Assembly (NCBI GenBank): GCA_041491005.1
Contig: JBGPUE010000010.1
Span: 178 to 64,177 of the forward strand
Direction: 5' to 3'
Source of the DNA: Candidatus Binataceae bacterium
GTDB taxonomy: Bacteria; Desulfobacterota; Binatia; Binatales; Binataceae
Length of the DNA stretch: 64,000 nucleotides
How positions within the stretch are numbered: position 1 is the first letter of the stretch; every line of letters starts with the position of its first letter. A program made the translations under genes and the position numbers. The notes beneath the pieces are model-generated. The model worked only from the letters and a program-made list of their open reading frames with translations, was not told where the DNA came from and did no database searches. Positions 6,630 to 57,162 of this stretch are shown here, in pieces.

Positions 6630-6764
6630 AGCGCGACCGGACCTGGCAAAGAACATTCTCCGCTCGCATTCTGCCACACTCGGCGCCGATGCTTAGTTGA
6701 ATGCTCGACGTCATACGATGACCCTCGCAAGCAATCGCTTGTCACACTTCTCAAAGGATAGAGA

Positions 6765-7499
6765 ATGATAACGCGCGCGGACTACCAGCGGAATAGGTTC
6801 GCTTTCCTCACCGGTCTAACGGACGTGAAGAAAGGCCTCGGTTTGGAAATTGGCGCCGGCGATCTGCCCACGGTCCTGCCCGGCGCCGGCAGATGCCTGC
6901 ATGCAAACATGTACGGCAAGAGAGATCTGGTGACGCTCTTCAATCTTCCTGCCGAGCAGGTGCCTGAGGTCAATTACGTAGTGAGTCGGCGGCAGCCCCT
7001 GTCGGAGCAGATTGGATTGCAAACCTTCGACTACGTTTTTCTGGCCCACGTGATTGAGCATGTGGCCGACCCGATTGGTTATGTCAAGGATCTGACAAAT
7101 CTCTTGAGACAAGATGCGCTGATCGTGATGGCAGTTCCCGACAAGCGCAGAACGTTCGACAATCCCCGACCGGCAACTGCGATTGAGCATATCCTCAGCG
7201 ACTATCACGAGAGAGCCATGTACCCGTCGGTGGAACACATAATGCAGTTCGCACCGTGCATCATCGACGAGCTCAAAGGCAAAGATTCGGTCGAGCTATA
7301 CCAATGGGCACAGGCCAACCACGAAAGTGGTGCGGCAGATGTCCATTGTCACGTTTGGACAGACGAAGACTTCTTCCGCCAAGTCGACGAGATCAGACGA
7401 GCTGGTCTTTGGACCGGGCTGACAGTCGTGGCCAAATGGCCGAACAGTGGTGACTTCAACGAATTCATGATCGCGTTGAGGTACACGGGAGGGCGATAG
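6765..7499 (+). CDS. Class I SAM-dependent methyltransferase-like protein, paralogue of the C-terminal domain of the preceding giant ORF
   Basis: 244-aa ORF. GLEIGAGDLP, FDYVFLAHVIEHVADP, IVMAVPDKRRTFD and VHCHVWT align by eye with GLEFGAGDNP, VDFVIACHVLEHTANP, LVLVIPDKRYTFD and IHYHTWT encoded at about 5990-6629. Confidence 0.7.
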   Translation: MITRADYQRNRFAFLTGLTDVKKGLGLEIGAGDLPTVLPGAGRCLHANMYGKRDLVTLFNLPAEQVPEVNYVVSRRQPLSEQIGLQTFDYVFLAHVIEHVADPIGYVKDLTNLLRQDALIVMAVPDKRRTFDNPRPATAIEHILSDYHERAMYPSVEHIMQFAPCIIDELKGKDSVELYQWAQANHESGAADVHCHVWTDEDFFRQVDEIRRAGLWTGLTVVAKWPNSGDFNEFMIALRYTGGR

Positions 7500-7519
7500 G
7501 GGTACTGTCGGTGTTGGTG

Positions 7520-8330
7520 TGAATTGGAGTACATCCGCCAAGAATCGTGGCGCGGCGAGTTTCGCAAACATGCGCTGTTCGGCTTGAGCGCCCCCGGCCC
7601 TTCGGGCTGGTAGTAGAATGCCCACGATAGTCGCCCCAGTGCTGATGAGGTCGAGCGCCAGCCGCGCGCGACCACCTTGAGCAAAGCCAGATCTGGCCCC
7701 GGCGACGTGGGCGCCTGATTCCCGTTCAGGATGATGCGACTCACTCCGCCTCCGCAAGCGATTTCGAACGGAACTTCGAGTGGCGTGAGCTCCAACTGCT
7801 CAGGCGTTTTGGAATGAACTTCCATCGCTGAGTCATTCGTGCGACAAGGGTCGATGCTGATCCGAAGTCGCCCCTTCGCAACCACGACCTTCGGACAACA
7901 AGACGCAGTATCCGGTGGCGCTCGGACTCGTCGACAGACTTGAACCGCGCCATAGCGGCTCTCGCGCGCTCATCTTTGGACAAGGTCTTGAGCGTGGAGT
8001 CGATGACCAGCTGTTCCAGCTCGTGAGCTGCGACACGTGGCAGGCTACCGGCTTCTTCGGGCCGATGCTGAACGACTGCCTGACTTACATAGTAGCGATA
8101 GCGGCGGCCTCCCTTACTCGTATGCGGACCGATTCAGTTGTTCTTCTTAGCGCGCGCTCCCGCCTGATGCCCGTTTGCGCCACCTCGCTTCGTGATCCGC
8201 ATTGCAGCCGTTTGGACATCACCAGAACCCACAACGCAAGTAGTTCTTTCTTGCCAAGTCCGCTGACCAGATCTGTCGGCATTTTCGGCAACGAAGCCGA
8301 TCGCCGCCGATCAAGTCGACGCCGACGCCT
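7520..8330 (-). pseudogene. Degraded large serine recombinase (C-terminal half only, multiple frameshifts)
   Basis: There is no single long ORF. Three minus-strand frames together read recombinase-like pieces: RLQCGSRSEVAQTG; GGRRYRYYVSQAVVQHRPEEAGSLPRVAAHELEQLVIDSTLKTL (zinc-ribbon/YRYYV region, Cys positions lost); ERHRILRLVV; VVAKGRLRISID...PDLALLKVVARGW; LISTGATIVGI...AAPRFLADVL. There is an in-frame stop (AKKNN*) and at least three frame changes. The N-terminal catalytic resolvase domain is absent. Boundaries are approximate. Confidence 0.45.
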
Positions 8331-8577
8331 CTGAGGACAAACTCCGCACCCGCGCCGGAAAGCTTTGGAGTATCCGGACACATCGGCGCCTCCGATTCGC
8401 ACGATGCTTCACCGCCCTGCCACCACGACCTTCATCGTTATAAGACTTTAGAGATAATCTTAATAATTCATGAGACGTCATAGTGGGTCAAGACCATCGA
8501 GTCTCCCCGGTCGCCGCCAGAGCAACTAGCGCCCTGCCGGTCACCACATGGCGACGAGGTACGTCTCGTTCCCTCGA

Positions 8578-14500: not shown

Positions 14501-17442
14501 GCGACGATGACGACGGCCACAACCGCAAGGGCGACACCGCCAGCCATTCGCCAATACGATCCGCGAAGATCAAGCCGGGTGCGGAACTTCGCCTGAGCGG
14601 CAGTAACCCACTCGAGCAGCCTCCGACGCCTCACGAACAGGCGGAAGAGCGTTCGCGAGATGGCGTCGGTCATCAACCACGCCTGATGCGCGAGGAATGT
14701 GACCACGAGCGCGATCTGTAAGAGAGCGACCAGGAGATCCGCGCCCACCGCGCGCAGATGGGTCCGCTTGGAGATACCGAGCCGTCGGGGCGCGATCCCG
14801 GCGAGCAGAGGCAACAGGGCAGGCACCGCGATCGTGACGAGCACGAAGGCGCTCCAGATTTTCGCGGAAAACAAGGGAAGAGACCATCCTGCCAGCAATG
14901 CCAGCAAGGCGGCCGGCGCCGACAGCGTTCGGCGCAGGTTGTCGATCATTTTCCAGCGGCCGATCAACGGAATCGCCGTGCGGCCCGGTTCGCCTTTTGG
15001 GTCGCGTCCCCGGCCGAAGATCCAGGGAAGTAATTGCCAATCGCCGCGCGCCCACCGATGCTGCCGCGCCGCGGCGACGTCATAGCGTGATGGAAACTCC
15101 TCGACCACCTCGATGTCAGAGACCAGTCCGGCCCGCGCGAAAATTCCTTCAAGCAGATCGTGACTCAGGAGCGTGCTGTCGGGAACCCGCCCTTCGAGAG
15201 CGGCTTCAAAGGCGTCCACGTCGTAGATTCCCTTACCGCTGTACGAACCCTCGCCGAAGAGGTCCTGGTATACGTCGGAGACGGCAGCCGCATACGGGTC
15301 GACGCCGCTGGCGCTCGAAAAGACACGCTGGAAAAGCGACCCGTCCCGACCGCTCGGCAACGACGGAGTAACTCGCGGCTGAAGCACCCCGTACCCCTCG
15401 ATCACGCGGCAGGAATGCGGGTCGAGGGTCGGACGGTTGAGCGGATGCGCCATCTTACCGATTAGCCGCTTGACGGCTCCCCGCGGTAGTCGCGTATCCG
15501 CGTCGAGCGTGATCACGTAGCGGACGCCGGGAGGCACGACCGGGAGGCGGGAGCCCATTGGCAGGAAGGTTGTGTCAGTCGCTCCGCGAAGCCATCGATT
15601 CAGCTCGTGTAGCTTGCCGCGCTTGCGTTCCCACCCGATCCACTTTCCCTCCCCGTCGTTCCAGATCCGCCGACGATGGAGCAGGAGGAATCGTTCCCCG
15701 TCCGGCGCCGGACCGTACAGCCGGTTCAGCCGCTCGATTCCCGCGACGGCTGCGCCGAGGAGCTTGTCGTCGCCCGGAGCATTCTCGGTGGCGCAGTCTG
15801 TCCAGTCCGAGAGGAGAGCGAAACGAAGATCGCCATCGGGAGTCGCGAGATGATGGACCTCGAGACGCTCGATCTGCTCCTCAAGTTCCGTTGGTGTCGT
15901 CAAGAGGGTGGGCACGACAACCATCGTGCGCAGACTCGACGGGACCCCGTCTCGAAGCTCCAGCCCAGGCAGTATCTTCGGGCCGAAGCAATTCATGACG
16001 CCGAGGTTCACCAGGGCCACACTCGCATCCAACGCCGGAAGGAATGCCAGGAGCGCGAGCATGACGAGAGTCCATCCGCCGACACCGGACTTTGCCACGC
16101 CGAGCAACAGTAGCGCGGAAATAAGCGTGACGACGATCGCGATGGTTCCGAGATAGCCCAGAATTCCCGCGGCCGCGTTGGCGCGAACGAGCCGTTGTCG
16201 CACCGGAACCTGAAATCCGATCTCGTTCTCGAGGGCCCGACGCCCTTTCGAGATGAGGTAATAGCCCGGCTCTTGCTCGCGGCGTGGGGTCGCCTCATCG
16301 CCGTTCACAGGATCTGCTGCCGCCCGCTTGGCGGCCACAATCGCCGATCGCGCGATATCGAGTTCCGTATGCGCCGACCCTCGCGCGAGCTCTTCGATCG
16401 CGTGCCTGTAGCGATCTCGAGTCGGGAAGTCCATTTCGGCAAAGTTGCCGCCGGCGCGGAGCACCGCATCAACGAGACTGACACTCTCGAAGAGTTCCGC
16501 CCAATCCACCGCGGACATCAGGCGCATGCTCATGATCGCATTGCGCACTGTCACGTTCATCGCGCCCTGCCTCTGATGCTCCTGACGGACGATCTCGTCG
16601 GCGGTCGTTCCCTGGGCTGCAAGGCGTTGGTCCAGCCAAAGGAGCGCTGGCGTCACGGTTGGGTCCTGATCGCGTAACCGCTGGACCAACTGAACCGCAA
16701 AGGCCGTCGGCAACGAGGTCTGATCGAAGCGTCGCAGAACAGTCTCCAGCGTCTCGCCCTTGCCATTGCCGACTCCCAATAGCCTGTCGGCTAGAGCGTC
16801 GGCCTCCTGGCGAGCCGCTCGACCCCTCACGATCCGCTCGGCCAAGCGCCGCAAATTCTCCACGAGCACGATTCGAAGCGTAATGGCAACGGCCCAGAGT
16901 TCGCCGATCGTCAGAGGCTGCACGCGCTGATAGGCCTGTAGGAACCGGGACAGCATCTGCGGATCGAAGCGGCTGTCGGTATGCGCAACGAAGGCCCAGG
17001 CAATTCCGAATACGCGGGGATAGCCTTCAAGTGGTCCTTCTGCAATTTTGGGCAACTGGCGATAGAAACCACGCGGAAGATCGTCCCGGACCTCGCGAAT
17101 TTGTTTTTCTACGACGTGGAAGTTGTCGACCAGCCATTCCGCCGCAGGCGTAATTGCGCGTTCCTCACGGATCGCTGCCGCGATCGCGCGATACGCTTTG
17201 AGCAGCACGCGACCATTTTCGCGCAGGCGTTTCAGCAGCCGTGAAGTAGTACCCGGCCTCGTCGTGACAGGCTGAGCAGCCGCAAGGCTCTCCGCATGCT
17301 GTTCGAGGCGCTCGATGCTGAACAATTCGGCGCGAATCGGCTCTTCAGCGTCTCCGGCGGTGGCCGCCAGCGGACCGTTAAGAGCTCGAAAAAATGAATA
17401 CTTCAAGTTTGCCTCTCGGCTTGGTGAACGCACCGAGAGCAA
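8578..17442 (-). CDS. ndvB: Cyclic beta-1,2-glucan synthase (ChvB/NdvB/Cgs type; GT84 + cyclisation + GH94-like domains)
   Basis: Single 2954-aa ORF. N-terminal PIRAELFSIERLEQHAESLA and several hydrophobic TM blocks. GT84-type module (VITLDADTRLPRGAVKRLIGKMAHPLN; QHRWARGDWQLLPW). Central helical glucan-binding region (SPTNLGLYLLSVTAAHDFGW). C-terminal GH94 phosphorylase-like region (GTGDWNDGMNRVG; RENGGQYTHAAIW). Size and domain order match the known cyclic glucan synthases. Confidence 0.9.
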   Translation of the reverse strand: MLSVRSPSREANLKYSFFRALNGPLAATAGDAEEPIRAELFSIERLEQHAESLAAAQPVTTRPGTTSRLLKRLRENGRVLLKAYRAIAAAIREERAITPAAEWLVDNFHVVEKQIREVRDDLPRGFYRQLPKIAEGPLEGYPRVFGIAWAFVAHTDSRFDPQMLSRFLQAYQRVQPLTIGELWAVAITLRIVLVENLRRLAERIVRGRAARQEADALADRLLGVGNGKGETLETVLRRFDQTSLPTAFAVQLVQRLRDQDPTVTPALLWLDQRLAAQGTTADEIVRQEHQRQGAMNVTVRNAIMSMRLMSAVDWAELFESVSLVDAVLRAGGNFAEMDFPTRDRYRHAIEELARGSAHTELDIARSAIVAAKRAAADPVNGDEATPRREQEPGYYLISKGRRALENEIGFQVPVRQRLVRANAAAGILGYLGTIAIVVTLISALLLLGVAKSGVGGWTLVMLALLAFLPALDASVALVNLGVMNCFGPKILPGLELRDGVPSSLRTMVVVPTLLTTPTELEEQIERLEVHHLATPDGDLRFALLSDWTDCATENAPGDDKLLGAAVAGIERLNRLYGPAPDGERFLLLHRRRIWNDGEGKWIGWERKRGKLHELNRWLRGATDTTFLPMGSRLPVVPPGVRYVITLDADTRLPRGAVKRLIGKMAHPLNRPTLDPHSCRVIEGYGVLQPRVTPSLPSGRDGSLFQRVFSSASGVDPYAAAVSDVYQDLFGEGSYSGKGIYDVDAFEAALEGRVPDSTLLSHDLLEGIFARAGLVSDIEVVEEFPSRYDVAAARQHRWARGDWQLLPWIFGRGRDPKGEPGRTAIPLIGRWKMIDNLRRTLSAPAALLALLAGWSLPLFSAKIWSAFVLVTIAVPALLPLLAGIAPRRLGISKRTHLRAVGADLLVALLQIALVVTFLAHQAWLMTDAISRTLFRLFVRRRRLLEWVTAAQAKFRTRLDLRGSYWRMAGGVALAVVAVVIVACLGGGSWPIAAPFVILWMLSPAVARWASLPPPMVGPNPPSETDAQTLKLIARRTWSFFETFVTAEDHMLPPDNFQEEPIPMLAHRTSPTNLGLYLLSVTAAHDFGWLGVLETLERLDATLTTMSGLERFHGHFYNWYDTRKLRPLDPKYVSSVDSGNLAGHLIALENALREMIGGPVPRPGWLAGIDDALEIARECLRLLADDRRTQTVTRKHIEDALDALTASLRSPATTPADVGRRLAGLALDAHTAVDIAWTLNQERGDDASAQVLNWVEAVRASILSHQRDVEQLMPWAKLAGDVAFVAAERAVDGDAPLEEVLGYLFESVPTIADLPGHCEEAIRGLTRYRSELDPHARGVSAAVVRADALIDAFERSANAARVLERRLAALGEMAGKMFEAMEFGFLFDPARQLLAIGYRVAEGSLDPNCYDLLASEARLASFVAIAKGDVPARHWFRLGRDLTPVDRGSALISWSGSMFEYLMPSLVMRAPEGSLLAQSNRLVVRRQMKYGAELGVPWGVSESAYSARDLELTYQYSNFGVPGLGLKRGLSENVVVAPYATALAAMVDAKAAARNFTRLAAAGGLGRYGYYEALDYTPTRLPEGEDVAVVRAFMAHHQGMTLVAIDDALRNGTMRARFHAAPVMQATELLLQERTPRDVLVARPRAEEVKVAPNIREIVAPMLRRFRSPHDVIPRTHLLSNGRYAVMITAAGSGYSRWRDLAVTRWREDVTCDSWGTYVFLRDVRTGEVWSAGYQPTGVEPDSYGVVFSEDRAEITRRDGTLTTTLEIAVSPEDDAEVRRVSISNLGNRYREIEVTSYAEVVLAPPAEDAAHPAFSKLFVQTEFVADVGAVMATRRLRSPGEAPVWAAHLAVVEGETVGDLQFETDRAAFLGRARGIRTPISVIDGRPLSNTVGTVLDPIFSLRHRLRIPPGGRARVAFWTLIAPSRVEALDLADKHHDFTAFERAVTLAWTQAQVELHHLGVSPDEAHLFQRIANHVIYANPTMRPSSEVLKRSERGSSTLWAHGISGDLPIVLVRIDEAEDREIVRQLVRAHEYWRMKQLDVDLVILNEKPSSYDQDLQATLEALVRANQSRPQADGEAARGAVFVLRSDLISVEVRSLLQSTARAVLLSHHGSLTEQVNRLEESQPAIAPPPRRESAPANEQPKATPPQTSLEFFNGIGGFAAGGREYVTIFSEALWTPAPWVNVIANRSFGFQVSAAGSGYTWSISSRENQITPWSNDPVSDPPGEVIYVRDEATGAFWSPTALPIREETSPYVVRHGQGYSRFEHTSHGISLELLQYVSPEDPIKISRLKIRNLSARSRRLSVTAYVEWVLGASRITSAPFVVTEIDSTTGAMLARNPRSNDFGSRVAFADLAGRQSAWTGDRTEFVGRNGTLDSPAALASATPLSDRVGAGLDPCGVLQTQLQLAPNSAAEIVFFLGEAATKAEALSLITRYRTTDLDSVFRAVTRQWDEILGAVQVKTPDRAMDILMNRWLLYQTLACRVWARSAFYQASGAYGFRDQLQDVMALAASTPEVTREHLLRAAARQFAEGDVQHWWLPPSGQGVRTRISDDRVWLPYAAAHYVEVTGDLAVLDEMVPFVEGPTLRADEHESYFRPMVSEQRVTLFEHCARALDVSLAVGHHGLPLIGTGDWNDGMNRVGEKGKGESIWLGWFLYSTLSDFAHLADDRGENARAANWSRHAAALKQSLERDGWDGDWYRRGYFDDDSPLGSASSTECRIDSIAQSWGVISGAADPARAATAMAAVEKYLVRRNEKLVLLFTPPFDLAPLDPGYVKGYPPGIRENGGQYTHAAIWSVLAFAMLGEGDKAGELFSMLNPINHASTRAGIHRYKVEPYVACADIYATPPHVGRGGWTWYTGSAAWMYRVGLERILGFRLRGATLVIDPCVPKAWPRFEIVFLYHSARYEIAVENPRGVSRGIASIELDGEALSRNRPVIPLANDGVTHRVRITLG

Positions 17443-21128: not shown

Positions 21129-21353
21129 GCTGGTGGCTCCTCTTCATTGGCGATCGTAAGATGCGCCGAACGCTTGAGTTGAAATAGGCTTCACTATTTG
21201 GTGGCGCCACTTCTTGCGCGAGCCGACTGCGTCCCTGGAGGGTTCGTTGGACGCGTTTAGGACGCGGTGGTCGCGGCTTCGATTGTGGATTTCGACAACG
21301 CACTCATCGGATAAATCAGGTATACTTCGCCCGGTGTCTTTGACGCAAAGCAT

Positions 21354-21848
21354 GTGACACCGATCGCGACAGCACAGGGTGATGCCATGGGGGAGCGGGG
21401 TATTTCGGGTAATCTCGGGTTTTGTTGGCTCGCTATAATGATGGTTCTGTTGGTTCAGGGTCGAGCGGCGGCTCAGTGGACCGGCCGCGACGGTTGGGTC
21501 GAAGAGCCCGCTGCCAAATCGCTCAACGTGGAAGGAGACCCGGGTCATGCGTACCTGGACCCCGCGTCCGTCCGCCGCGGCGATGACGGACTGGTATATT
21601 TCAACGAAAGCTCCAACGTGTCCCGACCGGGGGAAATAGGCAACGTGGGTTTAATGAAGGATGCCTACGATTGTGCGAAGAACATCAAGTACATGTGCGT
21701 AGGGGTTGGGGATTGGCGCAACGATCTGAAGAGCACGATCAACGCCGCCAATGACCCCGCTTTGCCAGTTTACCGCAAGTACCTGTGCGGCGACGCGAAA
21801 CCCGGCGAGGACAGCCCGAGCTACCTCCGGGAGCATCAACAGCCGTAG
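21354..21848 (+). CDS. Hypothetical secreted protein
   Basis: 164-aa ORF (the Met at 21387 may be the true start). Signal-like hydrophobic segment LGFCWLAIMMVLLVQGRAAAQ and several Cys in the mature part. I do not recognise a family with confidence. Confidence 0.5.
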   Translation: MTPIATAQGDAMGERGISGNLGFCWLAIMMVLLVQGRAAAQWTGRDGWVEEPAAKSLNVEGDPGHAYLDPASVRRGDDGLVYFNESSNVSRPGEIGNVGLMKDAYDCAKNIKYMCVGVGDWRNDLKSTINAANDPALPVYRKYLCGDAKPGEDSPSYLREHQQP

Positions 21849-28145: not shown

Positions 28146-30722
28146 GTGCCCACCGAAATCGCAGAAGCCCAACCGGATCCCGTGTCGATCGAGGCGTTAT
28201 TCGAGCGCTGTCAAGTCACCGAGGCGGGCCTCTCGAGCGAAGAGGCTTCCCGCCGCCTCGTGCGATACGGCCCGAACGAACCAGTTCCGCTCCGCCGTGG
28301 TACCGCGATCACTCAGTTCATCCGGTTTTGCAGCAATCCGCTGGTCCTGATTCTCCTATCGGCGTGTGCTATTTCGGCCCTGGTCGGCCAGAGAATCGAT
28401 GCCGCGATCATTGCCGCGATGGTGGCAATCAGCATCGCGCTGAATTTCGTCCAGGCGTACCGGTCAGAACGCGCAGTGCTCCGCCTCCGTGAGCAGGTCG
28501 CACCGAGCGCAACCGCTCTGCGCAACGGACGGTACGTTGAGGTGCCCCGCCGCGCGATCGTGCCGGGAGATATCGTGCGGCTTGCCGCCGGCGATCTGGT
28601 ACCCGCTGACGCGCAGCTCATTCAGAGCCGCGATCTTCACCTTCAGCAGGCGGCGCTGACCGGAGAATCGATGCCGGTCGAAAAGTTCGCCATCGGGAGT
28701 GAACCCGTGGCAGACAAGTCGGCGAGCCTGATCTTTCTTGGCAGTTCGGTCGTTAGCGGCAGTGGCACAGCAGTAGTCATCGCCACGGGATCGGCCACGG
28801 CCTTCGGCGGCATCGCGGCCCGGCTGGCGGTCCGGCCGCCTGAGACCGAGTTCGATCGCGGCACGCGACAGTTCGGTTTCCTGATCATGAGGACGGTCTC
28901 TTTCCTCATCCTGTTCATCCTGCTGGTCAACCTGAGCGCGCATCGCAACGCACTCGAATCACTCCTTTTCGCAGTCGCTCTGGCAGTCGGGCTGACCCCT
29001 GAGTTCCTGCCGATGATCACGACGGTGACGCTCTCGATGGGCGCGGTGAGGATGGCGCGCAAGAAGGTGATCGTAAAGCACCTCATCGCGATCGAAGACT
29101 TCGGCAGTATCGATGTGCTGTGCAGCGACAAGACTGGCACGCTTACTACCGGCACGATGTCACTCGATCGTTCGCTCGACCCCTTCGGTCAGCCGTCGGA
29201 TCGTGCTCTATCGCTCGCCTATCTCAATAGCCGCTTCGAAACGGGCATCAAGAGTCCGCTTGATGCCGCGATATTGGCGAATCCGCGCGACGATGCAGAG
29301 CCTTACCAGAAGCTCGACGAAATCCCGTTTGACTTCGAGCGTCGCCGTCTTTCGATCCTGGCCGGAAGGAACGGCGCCCGTCTCCTTGTTACCAAGGGAG
29401 CGCCTGAGAGCGTCATCGGTGTCAGTGCATATTTCGAAGCTGGCGGAACTACGCATCCGCTGGAGGAAGAGCCACGACGCCGATGCGAAAAGACTTTCCG
29501 GGAGCTCAGCGCGCAGGGCTTTCGCGTGCTCGCGGTGGCGTGTCGCCAGATCGAGGGCCGTGATCGACTGGCGACGGACGATGAGCACGATCTCATCCTC
29601 ACCGGATTCCTAACCTTCTTCGATCCTCCAGTCGGAGATGCGTCAGAATCGCTTGCGGCGCTGCGACGGGACGGAGTGCAGGTAAAGATTCTGACCGGTG
29701 ACAATGAGCTGGTCACAAGGCATGTCTGCGAGCAGGTCGGGATAAAGGCTGAGCGGATCGTGCTCGGAGACGAGGTCCAGGGCATGAGCGACTCGGCATT
29801 GGGTCACGTCGCCGAACAGGTGGACGTCTTCGCGCGTGTGTCGCCGGCTCAGAAAAATCGGATCATTCAGGCTCTCAGGCAGCGCAGCCACGTGGTCGGC
29901 TTCCTGGGTGACGGCATCAATGACGCGCCCTCTCTGCACACCGCCGATGTCGGGATCTCAGTGGCCGGAGCTGTCGATGTAGCCAAGGATGCTGCCGATA
30001 TCATTTTGCTGGAGCACAATCTTCAGGTGCTCCACAGCGGCATCATCGAGGGCCGCAAGGCCTTCGGCAATGTTCTGAAGTATTTGCTGATGGGGACCAG
30101 TTCGAATTTCGGCAACATGTTCAGCATGGCGGCTGCGTCGGTCTTTTTACCATTCCTTCCGATGCTGCCGACCCAGATCCTGCTGAACAATTTCCTCTAT
30201 GATCTTGCCCAGGTGACGATTCCCACCGACAATGTCGACCCGCTGTACATCCGCAAGCCTCAACGCTGGGACATCACGATAATCCGCAACTTTATGCTGG
30301 TGATTGGTCCGATCAGTTCTATCTACGACTTCCTGACCTTCTACGTCCTGTTGAAGGTCTTTCACTCTTCCGAGCAGCTGTTTCACACCGGTTGGTTCGT
30401 CGAGTCGCTCGCGACGCAGACTCTGGTGCTTTTCGTGATCCGAACGGCGGGCGTCCCCTGGAGCAGTCTGCCCAGCCGGCCGCTGGCGGCGACGACCGTG
30501 TTGGTCGTCGTGATCGGCGTGTTGCTGCCGTTCTCTCCGCTCGCGCAGGCTTTGGGGTTTGTGCCCCTCCCCGGCCGCTACTTTGTCTTCCTGACAGTAG
30601 CGACGCTGACCTACCTGTGTCTGGTCGAAGTCGCGAAGCGCTGGCTCATGGGGCGGCTGCTGGCCAAGCCGGACCGGCGCGTCGGCCATCGTGTGCGCCG
30701 ACACTCTGGAGCCGTCGCATGA
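28146..30722 (+). CDS. mgtA: Magnesium-translocating P-type ATPase
   Basis: 858-aa ORF (GTG start) with TGES, DKTGTLT, GDGINDAPSL, LTPEFLPMI and SSNFGNMFSMA, characteristic of the MgtA/MgtB subgroup. Confidence 0.9.
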   Translation: MPTEIAEAQPDPVSIEALFERCQVTEAGLSSEEASRRLVRYGPNEPVPLRRGTAITQFIRFCSNPLVLILLSACAISALVGQRIDAAIIAAMVAISIALNFVQAYRSERAVLRLREQVAPSATALRNGRYVEVPRRAIVPGDIVRLAAGDLVPADAQLIQSRDLHLQQAALTGESMPVEKFAIGSEPVADKSASLIFLGSSVVSGSGTAVVIATGSATAFGGIAARLAVRPPETEFDRGTRQFGFLIMRTVSFLILFILLVNLSAHRNALESLLFAVALAVGLTPEFLPMITTVTLSMGAVRMARKKVIVKHLIAIEDFGSIDVLCSDKTGTLTTGTMSLDRSLDPFGQPSDRALSLAYLNSRFETGIKSPLDAAILANPRDDAEPYQKLDEIPFDFERRRLSILAGRNGARLLVTKGAPESVIGVSAYFEAGGTTHPLEEEPRRRCEKTFRELSAQGFRVLAVACRQIEGRDRLATDDEHDLILTGFLTFFDPPVGDASESLAALRRDGVQVKILTGDNELVTRHVCEQVGIKAERIVLGDEVQGMSDSALGHVAEQVDVFARVSPAQKNRIIQALRQRSHVVGFLGDGINDAPSLHTADVGISVAGAVDVAKDAADIILLEHNLQVLHSGIIEGRKAFGNVLKYLLMGTSSNFGNMFSMAAASVFLPFLPMLPTQILLNNFLYDLAQVTIPTDNVDPLYIRKPQRWDITIIRNFMLVIGPISSIYDFLTFYVLLKVFHSSEQLFHTGWFVESLATQTLVLFVIRTAGVPWSSLPSRPLAATTVLVVVIGVLLPFSPLAQALGFVPLPGRYFVFLTVATLTYLCLVEVAKRWLMGRLLAKPDRRVGHRVRRHSGAVA

Positions 30723-34110: not shown

Positions 34111-34644
34111 CTAGTCAGCCAACGTGACGGTGCTGGCCTGCGGACCCTTCTCGCCCTCTTCTTCGGCGAAGCGGACATGACTGCCGACTTCGAGACGCTC
34201 GAAGCCGGGCGCCAGCACGCTGTTGCGATGGAAGTAGATCTCGCGACCGTCGGGCGTCTCGAGGAATCCGTAGCCGTCATCGCTGAAGAGCCTCGCGACG
34301 CGCGCCAAGGCCGGCCCTTCGTGGCTCTTAACCGCGCCGCGCACCTCGCGCACGTGGTCTTCAAGCCGCCGCCGGGCCGCGTCGAAGGCCTCGCGGATCG
34401 CCGTCATGAGTTCCTCGTCGGACTGATGGCTAATCGCGAGTTCGCCCCTCGGGACCTTCAGGTCGATTCGAATCTTGAACGGACCGCCCCGGCGGTGATG
34501 GCGCACCGGAGCTTCGACCGCGATGCGGCATCCGCTGATTTGGGGATCAAACTGTTCGAGCTTCGCAGCCCTGCGCCGAAGCTCAGCCTCTTCTGCCTCG
34601 GTCAACTGAAAGTTACGCGCTGTGATTTGAACCGGATATTCCAC
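34111..34644 (-). CDS. hpf: Ribosome hibernation factor (HPF/RaiA, S30AE fold) fused to a C-terminal cold-shock domain
   Basis: 177-aa ORF with a GTG start and GAGAGGA SD. The N-terminal ~105 aa are HPF/RaiA-like (VQITARNFQLTEAEEAELRRRAAKLEQF...FKIRIDLKVPRGELAI...EELMTAIREAFDAARRRLED). The C-terminal ~65 aa are CSD-like (ARLFSDDGYGFLETPDGREIYFHRNSVLAPGFERLEVGSHVRFAEEEGEKGPQASTV). Confidence 0.85.
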   Translation of the reverse strand: MEYPVQITARNFQLTEAEEAELRRRAAKLEQFDPQISGCRIAVEAPVRHHRRGGPFKIRIDLKVPRGELAISHQSDEELMTAIREAFDAARRRLEDHVREVRGAVKSHEGPALARVARLFSDDGYGFLETPDGREIYFHRNSVLAPGFERLEVGSHVRFAEEEGEKGPQASTVTLAD

Positions 34645-34670: not shown

Positions 34671-34686
34671 CGCAATCCCTGTGCCA
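34671..34686 (-). promoter_or_regulatory. Sigma-54 (-24/-12) promoter of hpf-CSD
   Basis: The minus strand reads TGGCACAGGGATTGCG, a full match to TGGCAC-N5-TTGCW. The -12 GC is 28 nt upstream of the GTG start. Confidence 0.6.
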
Positions 34687-34826
34687 CCAGTCACGAACGC
34701 CAGCTTGGCCGAATCGGCGGCCGTTGTGTCACCAAGAGAGACACGCGTGACCCCGTTGGGCGCAAACTTTGAAGTGACGGGCGTGGCGGTTGGCGGCCGA
34801 CCCTTCTGACGCACGATCGGCGTTCA

Positions 34827-34842
34827 CGGCGCACGTCTTGCA
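34827..34842 (+). promoter_or_regulatory. Candidate sigma-54 promoter of archease-rtcB
   Basis: CGGCGCACGTCTTGCA: GGC and TTGCA at exact consensus spacing, 37 nt upstream of the archease ATG. It is divergent from the hpf promoter. Confidence 0.45.
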
Positions 34843-34877: not shown

Positions 34878-35300
34878 ATGCCCAGCGACGAATTCTACCG
34901 TGAGATCGAGCACACCGGGGATGCGGGTGTCGAGCTCGTCGCCACGTCGCGCGCTGAACTGTTCCGCAGGGCCGCGATCGCGATCGCGCGGCTGATGGTG
35001 GCGCCCGAGGGCGTCCGCCCGATCGAGCGGCGCGAGGTGCGGGTCAGTGCAGTGAGCGATGCCGACCTGATGCACGACCTGCTCGCGGCGTTGCTCAACT
35101 TGTTCCTGGTTGAAGGGTTCATTTGGTGCGATGCGGTGGTGAATGAAGACGGCGATTCAGTGCGCGCGGACGTAGTCGGCGAACGCTATGATCCCGCGCG
35201 CCACGAGCTGCGCACCGAGATCAAAGCCGTGACCTACCATCAGCTGTCGGTCGAGCGCGTGGGAGATCGCTGGCAGGCGCAGGTGATTTTCGACATCTAG
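34878..35300 (+). CDS. Archease (RtcB activator)
   Basis: 140-aa ORF with the N-terminal YREIEHTGDAGVELVA (HT.D motif) and C-terminal IKAVTYHQLSVE typical of archease. It lies directly upstream of rtcB. Confidence 0.85.
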   Translation: MPSDEFYREIEHTGDAGVELVATSRAELFRRAAIAIARLMVAPEGVRPIERREVRVSAVSDADLMHDLLAALLNLFLVEGFIWCDAVVNEDGDSVRADVVGERYDPARHELRTEIKAVTYHQLSVERVGDRWQAQVIFDI

Positions 35301-35359
35301 GCTGCCCCGCGCGCAATCGTGCGAAGCGCGGCCGTCGAACGCGTCGGCGGTATCCGGTT

Positions 35360-36796
35360 ATGGAACTCCAGAAGATCAGCGACTTTCTATGGGAAATCCC
35401 GCGCCATGGAGCGATGCGCGTGCCGGGGCGGATTTACGCCAGCCAGCAGATGATCGACGAACTCCGCGATGATCCAGCGCTGACGCAGGTCGCGAACGTC
35501 GCGTGCCTGCCCGGCATCGTCGGCTACTCGCTCGCGATGCCCGATATCCATTGGGGCTACGGATTTCCGATTGGCGGTGTTGCCGCGACCGATGCCGACG
35601 AAGGAGTGATTTCACCCGGCGGTGTCGGCTACGACATCAACTGCGGCGTGCGGCTGATCAAGACCAACCTCGAGTACACGGCCATCGCGGACAAAGTTGA
35701 TCGTCTGGCTGACGCGCTCTTCGATGCTGTGCCCGCGGGCGTTGGCTCCAGCGGCGCGATTCCCGGCCTCGCGACCGACGAGCTCAAACGTCTGCTCGGC
35801 TCCGGCGCCGTATGGGCGATGAACCACGGCTACGCTTCGATGGATGATCTCGAGCACACCGAAGAGAGCGGCCGGCTCGAGATGGCTGACCCATCGGCCG
35901 TCAGCGAGATGGCGCTCAGGCGCGGGCGCATCCAGCTCGGCACACTCGGCTCGGGCAATCACTTCCTCGAATGCGACCGTGTCGATCAGATCTACGACCC
36001 CGACATCGCGCGCGCCTTCGGCCTCGAGCTCGGCCAAGTGACTGTGATTATCCATTCAGGCTCGCGCGGACTGGGCCATCAGATCTGCGACGACCATTTG
36101 CGCGTGATCGGCAAGGCGATGAGCGGTTACGGGATCACTCTACCCGACCGCCAACTCGCCTCGGTGCCGATCCGCTCGCCGGAGGGTCGTGCCTACCTGG
36201 GCGCGATGGCGGCGGCGGCCAACTTCGCCTGGTGCAACCGGCAGATCATGATGCATCTGGCCGAGCGCGCCTTCATGGAGACGCTGGGCACAGGGCCGCG
36301 CGAAGTCGGCTTCTCGTTGCTGTACGACGTTTGCCATAACATCGCCAAGTTCGAGCGCCATGTGGTGGGCGGTGTCGAACGGCGCGTATGTGTGCATCGC
36401 AAAGGTGCAACGCGCGCCTTCGGCCCAGGCCATCCGGCGCTGCCCATCGCCTTTCGAATGATCGGGCAGCCAGTGCTGATCCCCGGTGACATGGGCCGCT
36501 ATTCGTATGTGCTGGTGGGACGCGAACGTGCGATGGCCGAGACCTTCGGTTCGACCTGTCACGGCGCTGGGCGCTTAATGAGCCGCGCCGAAGCCAAGCG
36601 CCGGGCGCGCGGCCGCGACCTACTGGCGGAATTGCGGGAGGCCGGCGTGACGATCAGGTACCAAGGCCGTTCGACAGTCGCGGAGGAAATGCCGGCCGCT
36701 TACAAGGATGTCGCAGACGTGGTCGGAGTGATGGAAGCGGCTGGCGTCAGCAAGCGAGTGGCGCGGCTCAAACCCTTCGCCGTAATAAAGGGTTGA
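35360..36796 (+). CDS. rtcB: RNA 3'-phosphate ligase RtcB
   Basis: 478-aa ORF with MPDIHWGYGFPIGGVAA, GVGYDINCGVR, GSGNHFLE, HSGSRGLGHQ, HRKGATRA and CHGAGR. Confidence 0.95.
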   Translation: MELQKISDFLWEIPRHGAMRVPGRIYASQQMIDELRDDPALTQVANVACLPGIVGYSLAMPDIHWGYGFPIGGVAATDADEGVISPGGVGYDINCGVRLIKTNLEYTAIADKVDRLADALFDAVPAGVGSSGAIPGLATDELKRLLGSGAVWAMNHGYASMDDLEHTEESGRLEMADPSAVSEMALRRGRIQLGTLGSGNHFLECDRVDQIYDPDIARAFGLELGQVTVIIHSGSRGLGHQICDDHLRVIGKAMSGYGITLPDRQLASVPIRSPEGRAYLGAMAAAANFAWCNRQIMMHLAERAFMETLGTGPREVGFSLLYDVCHNIAKFERHVVGGVERRVCVHRKGATRAFGPGHPALPIAFRMIGQPVLIPGDMGRYSYVLVGRERAMAETFGSTCHGAGRLMSRAEAKRRARGRDLLAELREAGVTIRYQGRSTVAEEMPAAYKDVADVVGVMEAAGVSKRVARLKPFAVIKG

Positions 36797-37132
36797 TGCC
36801 GCGTCCATCGGCCTAGCCACCGCTATTGACGTTATTGAGTCCTACGAGTGTGTCAGGCGATGCGCCGAGCGCTCTGGATGCCGTAAGCGTCAGCCGCGTC
36901 GCCGCAGTGCGCGATTACGCGACGCGAATCTGCCTGATTGGCGCTGCTGCATCTAACGGAGTCATTGGTTCCCGGCTGACCCTCCTTACGAAAGCACCCA
37001 TCTCCGACATACTCTGTCTTTCGACATGGCGTTCCAATTCATAAGCAGCGATGGTGCGATTCGCTGGACTTAGACGCGAGCATCGGCGCATCCAGTTGAT
37101 TGTGCGGGGCTGAATACCTCCGCCTGTTTGTG

Positions 37133-37148
37133 CGGCAGGAGAATTGCT
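37133..37148 (+). promoter_or_regulatory. Candidate sigma-54 promoter of usp
   Basis: CGGCAGGAGAATTGCT: GGCA and TTGCT at exact -24/-12 spacing, 26 nt upstream of the ATG at 37173. Confidence 0.5.
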
Positions 37149-37172
37149 CAGGGCTCATGCAATAAGTCGGCG

Positions 37173-37583
37173 ATGAGACTGCTGTTCCGAAAGATTCTTT
37201 GTCCTATCGATTTCGACCGCATCGCGATCGGAGCAATCCAACTCGCGCGCGAGCTAGCCGGGCGAGACGGCGGCCTCGTCTACCTCTTGTGCGTCGTCCC
37301 CAAAGACCGGACTCGTCTGAAAGCCGACTTGGAGCAGGTCGCACACAACAGCTTGCGCGGGATTGGCCGCAAATGGTTCGAGGGAAAAGCGCCGTACGAG
37401 ATCCTCGTTCGCGCCGGCCGGCCAGCGCGGGCGGTGCTTGATGCGGCGGAGGAACTCGGCGTTGACGTCGTGGTGATGGCAACTCATGGGCGAACAGGAA
37501 CCAGGCGTGTGCGTCTGGGCAGCGTTACCGAGGAAGTGGTTCGGCAGTCGACACGACCGGTGGTGACAATCAGGCCAACGTAG
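37173..37583 (+). CDS. Universal stress protein (UspA family)
   Basis: MRLLFRKILCPIDFD... and the C-terminal VVVMATHGRTGTRRVRLGSVTEEVVRQSTRPVVTIRP (G-2x-G-9x-GS/T ATP-binding type). The listed ORF start at 37128 is probably an extension. Confidence 0.85.
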   Translation: MRLLFRKILCPIDFDRIAIGAIQLARELAGRDGGLVYLLCVVPKDRTRLKADLEQVAHNSLRGIGRKWFEGKAPYEILVRAGRPARAVLDAAEELGVDVVVMATHGRTGTRRVRLGSVTEEVVRQSTRPVVTIRPT

Positions 37584-37637
37584 GGCTTGGCCTGCTTCGT
37601 CGATCTTAACGCGCCAAATCGAGGAGGACATCGCACA

Positions 37638-37838
37638 ATGAGCAGATACAATTGGGACGAAATCAACCGCACGGTTGAGGACTTAACCAAGCGTTACAAC
37701 ATCGCAGCGGTCGACAGCGTGACCGTCGGTGGAAATAGCGATGGAGTCGAGTTGACGCTCACCTCGCTGACCCCCGAGCAAGCCGAGCAGATCTTCAGGC
37801 TCATCGGGCTCAAGCAAGTCGAGCTCACAGTGCTCTGA
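37638..37838 (+). CDS. Small hypothetical protein (66 aa)
   Basis: ATG at 37638 preceded by GAGGAGG at a good distance. The sequence MSRYNWDEINRTVEDLTKRYNIAAVDSVTVGGNSDGVELTLTSLTPEQAEQIFRLIGLKQVELTVL has no family I recognise. The coding call rests on the RBS and its position within the operon. Confidence 0.5.
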   Translation: MSRYNWDEINRTVEDLTKRYNIAAVDSVTVGGNSDGVELTLTSLTPEQAEQIFRLIGLKQVELTVL

Positions 37839-38109
37839 TCGCGCATCAAGCCGCCTCACTCTCTCGTTGACGGTCCGCAATGGTAGTCGTCGCGAAGAGC
37901 ACCCTTGTTCCGACGATACGGCGGAGTCGCGTAGATGCGGCGAGGCTGCTTCGTCCCCCGCTTCGATGCCGGGCCTCACGATGTTTGTGTGGAGCGATCC
38001 GGAGCGCGGCTGGCGCCTTTGGAAACACATCAGAGGGGGCTGGCTTACCGTGGTTCACTGTGGCCTACCCGGAAGCTGAGAATTCAGTGCAACGAATCCA
38101 GGAGTTCGA

Positions 38110-38125
38110 TGGCAAGTTTCTTGCG
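38110..38125 (+). promoter_or_regulatory. Candidate sigma-54 promoter of hsp20
   Basis: TGGCAAGTTTCTTGCG: TGGCA and TTGC at exact -24/-12 spacing, 47 nt upstream of the hsp20 ATG, which has a strong AAGGAGGAG SD. Confidence 0.55.
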
Positions 38126-38170
38126 ACACAGCATCATCGAACACCAACAATTTGAAAGGAGGAGAGATCA

Positions 38171-38623
38171 ATGGGAGCATTAACCCCATGGAGGCCGTTT
38201 CGCGAAATGGAGCGATGGGCGCGCAATCTGGAGGGCCGCTTTCCGCGAGTCTTTGAGGACTGGCCGTTTCGGGCCGAGGAAGCGGAGTTTCTGCCGCCGA
38301 TTGAGAGCTTCGTCCAGAACGGCAATATCGTCGTGCGCGCCGACGTTCCCGGACTGGAGGCCAAGGACATCGAGGTCAGCGTTTTGGGCAACGTGCTGAC
38401 GATCAAAGGCGAGCGCAGGGATCAGAAGGAAGTCAAGGCCGAGGATTACATCCGGCGCGAGATCTCCTACGGCTCCTTCGAGCGCAGGCTTACGCTGCCC
38501 GATGGCGCCGATGCCGACAAGGTCAAGGCGCAGTTCAAAAACGGGACGGTCGAGATCACGATGCCGATGGCCAAGGGCGCCAGCCCCAAGAAAGTGCTGG
38601 TGGAGAGCGCAGAGAAGAAGTAG
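38171..38623 (+). CDS. Hsp20 / alpha-crystallin family small heat-shock protein
   Basis: 150-aa ORF with an alpha-crystallin domain: PPIESFVQNGNIVVRADVPGLEAKDIEVSVLGNVLTIKGER...ISYGSFERRLTLP...KAQFKNGTVEITMP. Confidence 0.9.
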   Translation: MGALTPWRPFREMERWARNLEGRFPRVFEDWPFRAEEAEFLPPIESFVQNGNIVVRADVPGLEAKDIEVSVLGNVLTIKGERRDQKEVKAEDYIRREISYGSFERRLTLPDGADADKVKAQFKNGTVEITMPMAKGASPKKVLVESAEKK

Positions 38624-38734: not shown

Positions 38735-39337
38735 ATGCCAGCCGGGTCGACGATCTTGAATACCAATCACGAGCGGGTCGAGAAGCTCCGAACAGTGCTA
38801 GTCAGCCAACGCGACCATGCGTGGGCAAGGGTGCGGGAGTTCCGTCACGACCAGGAAGGCGACGCGATTCCGCCGCCGGCGGATGAGATGGACCTGGCGC
38901 GTTCGACCGCCGACCTCGAGACTCATGCGAGCCTGATCGAACAAGCGGAAGACCGGCTCGCACAAATCGACGACGCGCTGGCGCGGCTCAACGAAGGCCG
39001 CTATGGGATCTGCGCAAAATGCGTCGAGGAGATCGCGGTCGAGCGTCTCAACACGCTGCCCTTCGTGCTGTACTGCGTCGATTGCCAGCGCGAACTCAAC
39101 CGTGCGCGCCGCCGCGGCGAGGGCAGCCTGTCGCGCAGTTTCGGCCGCCGCTGGGAGACGCCGCTGGAGATGGATGAATCGCTGGAGAGGACCGACGCGA
39201 TGAGCCAGCCCGAGGAAGAAACCACCATACGCGAAGGCCGGCCTTTCGGCCGCGAAGAGGGCACTCCAGACCACGGCCGGATGCCGCGTACGGGCAGGGG
39301 CTTGGTTCGGCGCGGACGGCCCAAGCGCAGTGCGTAG
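38735..39337 (+). CDS. DksA/TraR-family C4 zinc-finger protein with a long basic C-terminal extension
   Basis: ATG at 38735 after AAGGAGGA. It has a coiled-coil region with DEMDLA (DxxDxA tip motif) and the zinc finger CAKC-x17-CVDC. About 80 further residues are rich in Arg/Glu/Gly. Confidence 0.8.
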   Translation: MPAGSTILNTNHERVEKLRTVLVSQRDHAWARVREFRHDQEGDAIPPPADEMDLARSTADLETHASLIEQAEDRLAQIDDALARLNEGRYGICAKCVEEIAVERLNTLPFVLYCVDCQRELNRARRRGEGSLSRSFGRRWETPLEMDESLERTDAMSQPEEETTIREGRPFGREEGTPDHGRMPRTGRGLVRRGRPKRSA

Positions 39338-39355: not shown

Positions 39356-39802
39356 ATGAGCAAACTATTCAACCGGATTCTCTGCCCGATCGCGTTCGAG
39401 CACGAGTCGTTGAGCGCCCTCGATCTGGCCATAGCGATCGCGCAGCAGAACGACGCGACCCTCGTGCTGCTCAACGTCGCGCCGCTCCCAATCGGAGCCG
39501 GCGAATTCGCGCCGACGCTCGATCCGTATCCCGCGATCGAGCAAGTGGCGCGCGAACGGCTTGAGCGACTGGCCCACGATCGGCTTGAAGGCAAGGTCGC
39601 ATACAACACCCATGTCGTCGCGGGCGATCCGGCGACGCAGATCCTCCGTGCGATCGAGGCCTTCGCCGCCGATCTGGTCGTGATGGGGACGCATGGGCGC
39701 AAGGGCGTCAAACATCTGCTGTTGGGGAGCGTCGCGGAGAAGGTCGTGCGCGAGTCACCGCGGCCTGTGCTGACCGTGCGTCCCGCAGAGGAAGCGCGCT
39801 GA
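39356..39802 (+). CDS. Universal stress protein (UspA family)
   Basis: 148-aa ORF with NRILCPIAFEHES... and LVVMGTHGRKGVKHLLLGSVAEKVVRESPRPVLTVRP. Confidence 0.85.
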   Translation: MSKLFNRILCPIAFEHESLSALDLAIAIAQQNDATLVLLNVAPLPIGAGEFAPTLDPYPAIEQVARERLERLAHDRLEGKVAYNTHVVAGDPATQILRAIEAFAADLVVMGTHGRKGVKHLLLGSVAEKVVRESPRPVLTVRPAEEAR

Positions 39803-55830: not shown

Positions 55831-57162
55831 TCATTCGATTCCATAGCGTCTGCGTTTGCGCCAGAGCGTGGTGGCGTTGATTCCGAGCGTTGCGGCGGCC
55901 TCATCAAGTGTCGCGCTCTCGGCCAGCACTCGCGCGATATGTTCTCGTTCGACGTCTTCGAGACTCGCGGCAGGCGAGGTGGTGCCCGGCGCCTGCGGTA
56001 TATCGCGGAAGATCGAATCGGGCAGATCGTCGGGCCCGATGGTATCGCTGCGGCTTAGCACCGCGGCGCGCTCAAGAGCGTTACGCAACTCGCGCACGTT
56101 TCCCGGCCATTGATAGCGGGCCAGGGCCGCGCCGGCCTGCGGCGCGAGCCGGAGCTGCGGACGGTGGTTGCGAATCGCCGCCGCACGCAGCATCCACTCC
56201 GCCAGCGCCGGGATGTCCTCGCGGCGCTCGCACAGCGGCGGCACGCGGAGCGTAATCACGTTGAGCCGGTAGAACAGATCTTCGCGGAAGCGGCGCGCCT
56301 TGACCTCGTCTTCCAGATCGCGATTGGACGCGGCGATGATTCGCGCGTCGACCCGGATCGTGCGTTCTCCGCCCACGCGTTCGAAGCTCTGTTCCTGGAC
56401 GAAGCGTAGAAATTTGGTCTGCAGTGCGGCCGAGAGGTCGGCGATCTCGTCGAGAAATACCGTGCCGCCGTCGGCCGCCTCCAGGCGGCCGGGCTTGTCC
56501 TTGATGGCGCCGGTGAATGAACCGCGCATATGGCCGAAGAGCTCGCTTTCGAGCAGCTGCTCCGAGAGCGTCGTGCAGTTGACCACGACGAACGGGCGCT
56601 CGCATCGCGGACTCCATCTGTGAATCTGGCGGGCGAGGACGTTCTTGCCGGTGCCGCTCTCGCCGCTGAGCAGGATCGTCGCCTCGCTGCGCGCAGCCTG
56701 CCGCGCGGTTTCCAGCATGCGAACCATTGCGGCGCTGCGCGATTCCAGCATCGGCATCTCGTCGATAGTCTCGCGTAGCACCTGGTTCTCCGCCTGCAGG
56801 CTGTGCATCTGCAGCGCGCGATCGACCACATGGCGTATCTGGTCGAGCGAGAAAGGCTTGGCAATATAGTCGGAGGCGCCGGCCTTCATCGCGGCCACTG
56901 CGTTCTCGACGGTCGCGTAAGCCGTCATCAGGATCACCGGCGTGTAGGGATGCAGCCGCTTCGCCTCGTTGAGCAGCTCGAGTCCGTTCATCTCCGCCAT
57001 CCGGAAGTCGGTCAAAACCAGATCCAGCGGTCCTGCGGCGAGCGTCTGTATCGCCGCGACGCCGCTGGCGGCTTCGCGCACCTCGTGTCCGAGCGACTGG
57101 AAGAACGCCGCGAGGCTGCGGCGAATGTTCTTCTCGTCGTCGACGATGAGCAGTCGCGCCAT
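55831..57162 (-). CDS. Sigma-54-dependent response regulator (NtrC family)
   Basis: Met at 57162 (MARLLIVDDEKNIRR). It has a receiver domain (LVLTDFRMAEMNG), an AAA+ sigma-54 interaction domain (GESGTGKN, GSFTGA variant of GAFTGA) and a C-terminal HTH (ATLGINATTLWRKRRRYGI). An ATGA overlap joins it to the kinase stop. The listed 551-aa ORF has a spurious 108-codon extension. Confidence 0.9.
   Translation of the reverse strand: MARLLIVDDEKNIRRSLAAFFQSLGHEVREAASGVAAIQTLAAGPLDLVLTDFRMAEMNGLELLNEAKRLHPYTPVILMTAYATVENAVAAMKAGASDYIAKPFSLDQIRHVVDRALQMHSLQAENQVLRETIDEMPMLESRSAAMVRMLETARQAARSEATILLSGESGTGKNVLARQIHRWSPRCERPFVVVNCTTLSEQLLESELFGHMRGSFTGAIKDKPGRLEAADGGTVFLDEIADLSAALQTKFLRFVQEQSFERVGGERTIRVDARIIAASNRDLEDEVKARRFREDLFYRLNVITLRVPPLCERREDIPALAEWMLRAAAIRNHRPQLRLAPQAGAALARYQWPGNVRELRNALERAAVLSRSDTIGPDDLPDSIFRDIPQAPGTTSPAASLEDVEREHIARVLAESATLDEAAATLGINATTLWRKRRRYGIE

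Follow-up and report, generated by a model that had tools for sequence, protein, structure and literature searches.

Sigma-54-type boxes before an hsp20 and a usp gene of a soil Binatota bacterium, and a conserved dyad upstream of hsp20

The 64-kb stretch of DNA considered here (the window, 64,000 nucleotides in full) is part of the JGI contig Ga0534150_0000107 (sample 3300053057) and derives from an uncultured soil bacterium whose nearest named relatives, judged by the proteins of the window, are Candidatus Binataceae, of the phylum Binatota. We know of no member of this phylum that has been cultured and studied genetically. Within the window, a gene of the universal stress protein (USP) family, usp, and a gene for a small heat-shock protein, hsp20, are each preceded by a 16-nt box of the sigma-54 (-24/-12) type. 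Are these boxes promoters, and do they bring the two genes under common control with the nearby genes for a ribosome hibernation factor (hpf) and the RNA ligase RtcB? The presence of two sigma-54-type boxes, reported in a preliminary description of this DNA, is confirmed, and the interpretation placed on them there is partly supported. The boxes and the genes behind them are as follows.

37133-37148 (+): candidate -24/-12 box of usp, CGGCAGGAGAATTGCT; predicted transcription start about 37159
37173-37583 (+): Usp-family gene, 136 aa (Pfam Usp, E 5e-24, 85.9 bits against a cutoff of 24)
38110-38125 (+): -24/-12 box of hsp20, TGGCAAGTTTCTTGCG; predicted transcription start about 38136
38171-38623 (+): Hsp20 / alpha-crystallin gene, 150 aa (Pfam HSP20, E 1.4e-23, 83.4 bits against a cutoff of 20.8)

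Both 16-mers read back exactly at these coordinates on the forward strand, and the -24/-12 spacing is exact, as had been described: GG and GC are offset by 12 nt (GG-N10-GC) in both, as in TGGCAC-N5-TTGC. The gaps between box and gene had been put at 26 nt for usp and 47 nt for hsp20; measured from the box to the start codon they are 24 and 45 nt, two fewer in each case.

By count, boxes of this kind are not enriched, since TGGCA-N6-TTGC with at most one mismatch occurs 16 times in the 64-kb window against 15.3 expected; the hsp20 box matches this pattern without mismatch and the usp box with one. With an approximate sigma-54 matrix, four matches reach 13 bits or more, against 2.1 in Markov shuffles, and the four best of 128,000 positions are 38110+ (hsp20, the best), 2269+, 34686- (before hpf-CSD, in which the hibernation factor is fused to a cold-shock domain) and 37133+ (usp, the fourth). 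All four lie 10-140 nt upstream of a start codon on the same strand, a zone that takes up 4.7% of positions (P ~5e-6), and shuffles of the individual intergenic regions gave P values of 0.0028 for hsp20, 0.011 for usp and 0.0022 for hpf. The frequencies in this matrix approximate those of the Barrios compilation. A second matrix, derived from 18 known E. coli promoters tabulated in PMC2831329, ranks hsp20 at 5-6 in the window, hpf at 2-8 and usp at 15-17. The hsp20 and hpf sites hold up under either matrix; the usp site does not.

The hsp20 box and its upstream dyad

An alignment of Hsp20 homologues (40-70% identity) was used to fetch 80 metagenome loci, cited below by number where needed, of which 66 had enough upstream sequence. 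A box scoring at least 10 bits precedes the hsp20 homologue on the coding strand in 31 of these 66 and on the opposite strand in none (0/66), mostly at 26-66 nt from the start codon. The 34 distinct box-anchored sequences, window included, yield the consensus TGGCgCG-N4-TTGCt; information content is high at T1, G2, G3, C6, G7, T12, T13, G14 and C15 and falls to about zero in the flanks and the N4 spacer, with TGG, CG and TTGC nearly invariant. The preference for G at position 5 opposes the approximate matrix, so that selection with this matrix cannot have produced it. Alone among the 34, the window's own hsp20 box has A at position 6; it closely resembles the E. coli nac promoter TGGCAAGCATCTTGC. 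Locus L138, from a Binataceae assembly, has the same architecture as the window hsp20. On this comparative evidence the hsp20 site is very probably a working sigma-54 promoter.

When the 175 nt preceding the boxes of relatives were searched by Gibbs sampling, a 20-nt element emerged with the consensus CTGGCGCnATTGGnnACAg. Six of its positions (T2, G3, C7, G13, C17 and A18) do not vary among 24 sites and mirror one another about position 10, and the core is therefore a 17-bp dyad, TG-N3-C-N5-G-N3-CA; complementarity within the element is 56% on the position-10 axis, against 11-34% on other axes. The dyad begins 35-115 nt before the box, at 58-60 nt in about 10 loci, and many loci carry two copies 29-34 nt apart. 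The sites found before hsp20 in the window are these.

38010-38029 (unstranded): conserved dyad CTGGCGCCTTTGGAAACACA, probable enhancer (upstream activating sequence, UAS), starting 100 nt before the hsp20 box
38040-38060 (unstranded): possible degenerate second dyad copy CTGGCTTACCGTGGTTCACTG, 30 nt after the first and below the matrix threshold

Scored with a leave-one-out matrix, the first of these reaches 21.4, the best value in the 64 kb, where shuffles gave a maximum of 19.3 and a mean of maxima of 14.5. The hsp20 homologues that lack a box lack the dyad too, with best scores of at most 6.6 except in L003 (10.1). Position, symmetry and tandem copies are all as expected of a site for an enhancer-binding protein, such sites typically lying some 70-150 nt before the transcription start; the dyad, which is apparently undescribed before, is probably the enhancer of an activator, and judging from its spacing the degenerate copy at 38040-38060 is a possible second site. 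Two other places in the window bear on this matrix. The palindrome CTGTCGCGATCGGTGTCACAG at 21353-21373 scores 13.5-14.3 on both strands; it sits between divergent genes and has no proper sigma-54 box near it. The high-scoring box TGGCACGCAGATCGCT at 2269-2284 (+), which overlaps the end of a family-2 glycosyltransferase gene and lies 124 nt before a 1406-aa methyltransferase/glycosyltransferase gene, has no dyad element before it by the dyad matrix.

An activator of the appropriate class is encoded in the window, behind a gene for a PAS/HAMP histidine kinase.

55831-57162 (-): gene for a sigma-54 activator of the NtrC type (receiver, AAA+ Sigma54_activat and HTH_8 domains, with a GSFTGA loop of the GAFTGA type; Pfam)

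NtrC-type activators act only with sigma-54, and the activator gene, serving as a proxy for rpoN, indicates that the organism uses this factor. Further activator genes occur in relatives, next to related gene islands.

Could hsp20 be controlled by another heat-shock element? The preliminary description had seen none in the 330 bp upstream of the gene, and this holds: scans of that region for sigma-70, sigma-32 and sigma-B promoters, for CIRCE and HAIR operators (all with consensus sequences from established knowledge) and for Rfam families returned no good match. The best matches were poor, with 8/18 mismatches for CIRCE, 5/14 for HAIR and 4-5/14 for sigma-32, and poor matches for sigma-70 and sigma-B as well; a sigma-70-type site was found in neither the usp nor the hsp20 intergenic region, and no Rfam family, ROSE included, appeared at E <=1. 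An RNA thermometer finds no support. Hairpins occur in the leaders of some relatives (1/4 folded better than shuffles), and the predicted 35-nt hsp20 leader of the window has none, being unstructured at -1.5 kcal/mol.

A different reading of the box itself is that 38110-38125 is the operator of a dimeric repressor. The box contains the palindrome GCAAG-TTT-CTTGC, its reverse strand matches the sigma-54 pattern with one mismatch, and an 11-nt inverted repeat, GGAGTTCGATG and CATCGAACACC at 38101-38111 and 38135-38145, brackets the box together with the predicted start. In relatives, however, the boxes (for example TGGCGCGTTGCTTGCT) lack palindromic symmetry, no such repeat brackets them, and conservation follows the asymmetric sigma-54 consensus, which makes an operator exceedingly improbable. 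Slightly less remote, and still very improbable, is the view that neither the hsp20 nor the usp site works, that promoter types outside those covered are used (extracytoplasmic function (ECF) sigma factors, or a housekeeping consensus particular to the phylum) and that the conserved box is something else. Some hsp20 homologues do without a box; yet the conserved positions are exactly those of sigma-54 (TGG, C, G, N4, TTGC), their spacing is fixed and they occur on one strand only, with a dyad at enhancer distance upstream and activator genes to go with it.

Several observations weigh against sigma-54 control of hsp20 or add nothing to it. Box-less hsp20 homologues with wholly different upstream regions exist (L003, from a Binataceae assembly, L045, L060 and L068), and sigma-54 control therefore covers part of the family, not all of it. 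The near-identical strains L035-L040, which share the same Hsp20, are more than 98% identical and have no variable site upstream of hsp20, a comparison that is uninformative. No rpoN was noted among the window open reading frames (ORFs) scanned with Pfam. The dyad matrix was trained on the same box-bearing loci in which dyads were then counted, leaving the window site and the box-less loci as its independent tests. A search for relatives with a single protein against contigs was also tried and set aside: it returned only L003 (59%) above 45% identity, which is box-less, and the distant matches were irrelevant.

Taken as a whole, the best explanation, which we consider probable, is that hsp20 has a sigma-54 promoter with an upstream enhancer and belongs to a shared regulon. 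The sequence, position and conservation of box and dyad are observed, as is the presence of the activator gene. Binding, the start sites, the choice of activator and the inducing signal are inferred. RNA polymerase with sigma-54 (RpoN) would bind the GG (-24) and GC (-12) at 38110-38125 and stay closed until an ATP-driven activator on the dyad at 38010-38029, perhaps also on the weak copy at 38040-38060, reaches the complex by looping and opens it. The hsp20 transcript would begin near 38136 with a short unstructured leader and a strong ribosome-binding site (GGAGGAG), and control would be transcriptional and signal-dependent. The genes hpf-CSD, archease-rtcB and usp would probably answer to the same sigma factor and activator, in one regulon of stress, ribosome hibernation and RNA repair. 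Within it the usp box would be the least certain member: either it is a weak sigma-54 promoter of its own for usp and the 66-aa ORF that follows, or usp is transcribed by read-through from the archease-rtcB promoter.

The usp box

The reading of both boxes as sigma-54-type promoters stands for hsp20, where box and dyad are conserved in relatives; for usp it is plausible only, its orthologues being without a strong box directly upstream. If the usp 16-mer is a chance match, the sigma-54 promoters at hsp20 and hpf alone would be real, and usp with the 66-aa ORF would be transcribed by read-through from archease-rtcB or from an unrecognized promoter. The form of the box gives this alternative some weight. 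Its -12 half is perfect (TTGCT), and in its -24 half, CGGCAGG, two positions differ from the consensus, with G where 33/34 of the hsp20 boxes, window included, have C. At the rank that the E. coli-derived matrix assigns to it, about 0.8 matches are expected by chance in promoter zones. The leader would be only 14 nt long, with a poor ribosome-binding site, and before the box there are only weak dyad-like matches of 10.5-11.3 bits.

Comparison with relatives points the same way. At eight distinct loci with usp orthologues of 60-74% identity, no box of at least 10 bits lies directly upstream; L125-L127 carry the weak TGGTTCATTGCTTGCC before the usp orthologue. The closest orthologues are second genes behind a box-bearing gene, orf214, in an operon apparently driven by sigma-54 and the dyad and divergent from hsp20, a membership that speaks for the usp box.

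On the other side, the box is in the right place and orientation, where a match as good is rare in shuffles of that region (the P value given above) and where no sigma-70-type site is present. The gap between rtcB and usp is 376 nt long and holds a terminator-like hairpin at 37104-37123, and together these part usp from rtcB; the hairpin does not exceed chance (1 found against 4.0 expected). Boxes that start with CGGC recur before genes in relatives, and other USP genes of relatives have boxes, in L082 and L119 (TGGCA[CT]GTTGAATGCT, 57-61 nt upstream) and in L134 and L136. Among the strains L035-L040, about 14 variable sites fall in the rtcB-usp spacer and none of them in the usp box, which again is uninformative. 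Weighing these points, we lean towards the usp box being a working promoter and hold a chance match with read-through or another promoter to be rather unlikely.

Around these two genes, the order by Pfam is phosphoribosyl pyrophosphate (PRPP) synthetase (-), CDP-alcohol transferase (-), the hpf (S30AE)-cold-shock fusion (-), archease, RtcB and usp, continuing with the 66-aa ORF, hsp20, a DksA/TraR-like gene, a second usp, a hydrolase and a phosphoribosyltransferase. The genes not yet placed next to usp and hsp20 are listed here.

37638-37838 (+): 66-aa ORF behind a strong ribosome-binding site, 54 nt after usp; among the gene calls of the source contig
38735-39337 (+): gene for a DksA/TraR zinc-finger protein, 200 aa, downstream of hsp20 (Pfam zf-dskA_traR)
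39356-39802 (+): second USP gene, 148 aa (Pfam Usp, E 2.9e-32)

The 66-aa ORF and usp probably share a transcript. Pfam has no match for the ORF, which was found only in near-identical strains, and a proposed kinship with the 61-62-aa ORFs divergent from hsp20 in L136 and L138 was discarded, the proteins being unrelated. Elsewhere in the window are a P-type ATPase gene (28146-30722) and an ORF of about 2950 aa at 8578-17442 (-), which takes up 9 kb of it.

Links to hpf, rtcB and other stress genes

The preliminary description had tied usp and hsp20 to promoters before hpf and rtcB, and this link fared well. In the window it involves the following features.

34111-34644 (-): hpf-CSD, ribosome hibernation factor (S30AE) fused to a C-terminal cold-shock domain (Pfam Ribosomal_S30AE and CSD)
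34671-34686 (-): sigma-54 box of hpf-CSD, TGGCACAGGGATTGCG; exact TGGCA-N6-TTGC match, 26 nt before the GTG start
34725-34744 (unstranded): weak dyad-like element between the hpf and archease boxes, score ~11, starting 58 nt upstream of the hpf box
34827-34842 (+): weaker sigma-54-like box CGGCGCACGTCTTGCA, score 9.4, 35 nt before archease-rtcB
34878-36796 (+): archease and RtcB RNA-ligase genes (Pfam Archease, RtcB)

The hpf box is near-consensus and the archease box weaker, and the 58-nt offset from the start of the dyad-like element to the hpf box is one that hsp20 loci favour. In the window, the evidence that hpf has part in a shared enhancer is suggestive only. In relatives the arrangement is clearer, and hsp20 there shares its putative enhancer with rtcB, usp or ftsH promoters. 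A single dyad lies between the divergent sigma-54 boxes of hsp20 and rtcB in L074, between hsp20 and the orf214-usp operon in L121 and L123 (whose usp shares 73-74% identity with the window's), and between hsp20 and orf62-ftsH in L136 and L138. One dyad between divergent boxes supports the link of hsp20 and usp to the hpf and rtcB promoters. A single enhancer common to all boxes does not follow from this, since with the dyad matrix no element turns up ahead of the 2269 box or of several boxes of usp, dksA and other genes in relatives.

The hpf-CSD and DksA-like genes often neighbour hsp20 in relatives, some with boxes of their own. The S30AE-cold-shock fusion adjoins hsp20 in at least nine related metagenome loci, and hsp20 is paired with a DksA/TraR gene in a dozen or more, several of these dksA genes having their own box, for example TGGCACAGGATTCGCT in L121.

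Two further loci carry islands of related content. In L136 (JGI 3300054965, a 1-Mb contig), positions 1-10468 form a stress island with sigma-54 boxes before hsp20, orf62-ftsH and usp, in the order activator, orf154, usp, ftsH, orf62, then hsp20, a CBS-domain gene and groEL, then archease, rtcB and PRPP synthetase. The activator of this island is a candidate for the cognate regulator; Pfam recognizes no domain in its N-terminus, nor in orf154, orf214 or orf62. In L134 (Binataceae assembly GCA_035650475.1), positions 1-8465 hold two usp genes and a P-type cation ATPase, together with a luciferase-like monooxygenase gene that has a strong box, CGGCTCGATATTTGCT, and a receiver-type sigma-54 activator 49% identical to that of the window.

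Our broadest proposal is offered tentatively, as one that may well prove too wide: that Binataceae and allied soil bacteria devote one regulon to stress, ribosome hibernation and RNA repair, run through sigma-54 and one activator acting on the undescribed 17-bp dyad. Its members, jointly and with the same reserve, would be hsp20, hpf-CSD, archease-rtcB, usp genes and the DksA-like gene, with ftsH and groEL in some genomes.

Relation to known sigma-54 systems

Sigma-54 control of an Hsp20 or of USPs had been called uncommon, which is true, and it is not new, as published cases in E. coli (ibpB) and Myxococcus (a USP) show. The E. coli gene ibpB is an accepted sigma-54 target (Kuczynska-Wisnik et al. 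2001) and served as a positive control for chromatin immunoprecipitation in PMC2831329. Like the window hsp20, it is a small heat-shock (Hsp20 / alpha-crystallin) gene behind a -24/-12 promoter. Unlike it, ibpB is also under sigma-32 control, via ibpA, and has its box TGGTAAATGGTTTGCT about 170 nt upstream of the start. At the window hsp20 that distance is 45 nt, no sigma-32-like site was found and a conserved dyad stands alongside.

The E. coli rtcB gene is a classic sigma-54 target (PMC2831329), and the rtcBA operon of E. coli and Salmonella is activated by RtcR (PMC2831329, PMC9650030, PMC7790460). That operon resembles the window in placing RtcB under sigma-54, and it responds to damage to the translation apparatus. 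The window differs in having neither RtcR (an activator with a CARF domain) nor rtcA beside rtcB, in the archease gene that precedes rtcB and in the weakness of the archease box; relatives differ in that rtcB shares its enhancer with hsp20.

In the NmpRSTU system of Myxococcus xanthus, a single-domain USP and CBS-domain proteins are expressed from sigma-54 promoters under the NtrC-like NmpR (PMC11841059). The likeness to relatives of the window is that CBS genes accompany hsp20 or dksA there. The NmpR regulon is unlike them in its site, GCGCA-N5-TGCGC, which differs from the dyad, and in that no Hsp20 or hibernation factor is reported in it. As a candidate enhancer here the NmpR site was dropped, its 122 matches in the window against 120.6 expected being at chance level. 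The same species provides a further parallel, in which the target of the HsfA/HsfB system is lonD, encoding a Lon protease. HsfA/HsfB is an NtrC-type heat-shock regulator (PMC3892784). Here, too, a heat-shock gene is controlled through a sigma-54 enhancer-binding response regulator, the difference being that the target is the Lon protease and not an Hsp20. The DosR regulon of Mycobacterium tuberculosis comprises the alpha-crystallin gene hspX, several USPs, a hibernation-factor-like protein and a P-type ATPase, and DosR, a regulator of the LuxR type, acts at promoters of the sigma-70 family; its likeness to the window is one of gene content only.

The orthologous groups of IbpA and UspA figure in the predicted sigma-54 regulons of a 2025 survey (PMC12316311), and Hsp20, RaiA and RtcB have been found to cluster with hibernation genes (PMC10901736). 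In the literature we found nothing on the sigma-54 system of Binatota. Published cases already place sigma-54 before small heat-shock and USP genes, and the gain here is one of extent and detail, not of kind: a conserved enhancer dyad and a probable regulon of stress, hibernation and repair genes.

The promoter-enhancer module at hsp20, common in relatives to rtcB, usp, ftsH and hpf promoters, makes this a concrete and testable regulon, and the dyad motif offers a handle for seeking the cognate activator. Enhancer-dependent promoters have essentially no basal activity, and the protective genes would therefore be strictly gated by a signal and not tuned by competition among sigma factors. If the proposal is true, these soil bacteria would rely on enhancer-dependent transcription for a regulon comparable in function to the heat-shock regulon of sigma-32 or the dormancy regulon of DosR.

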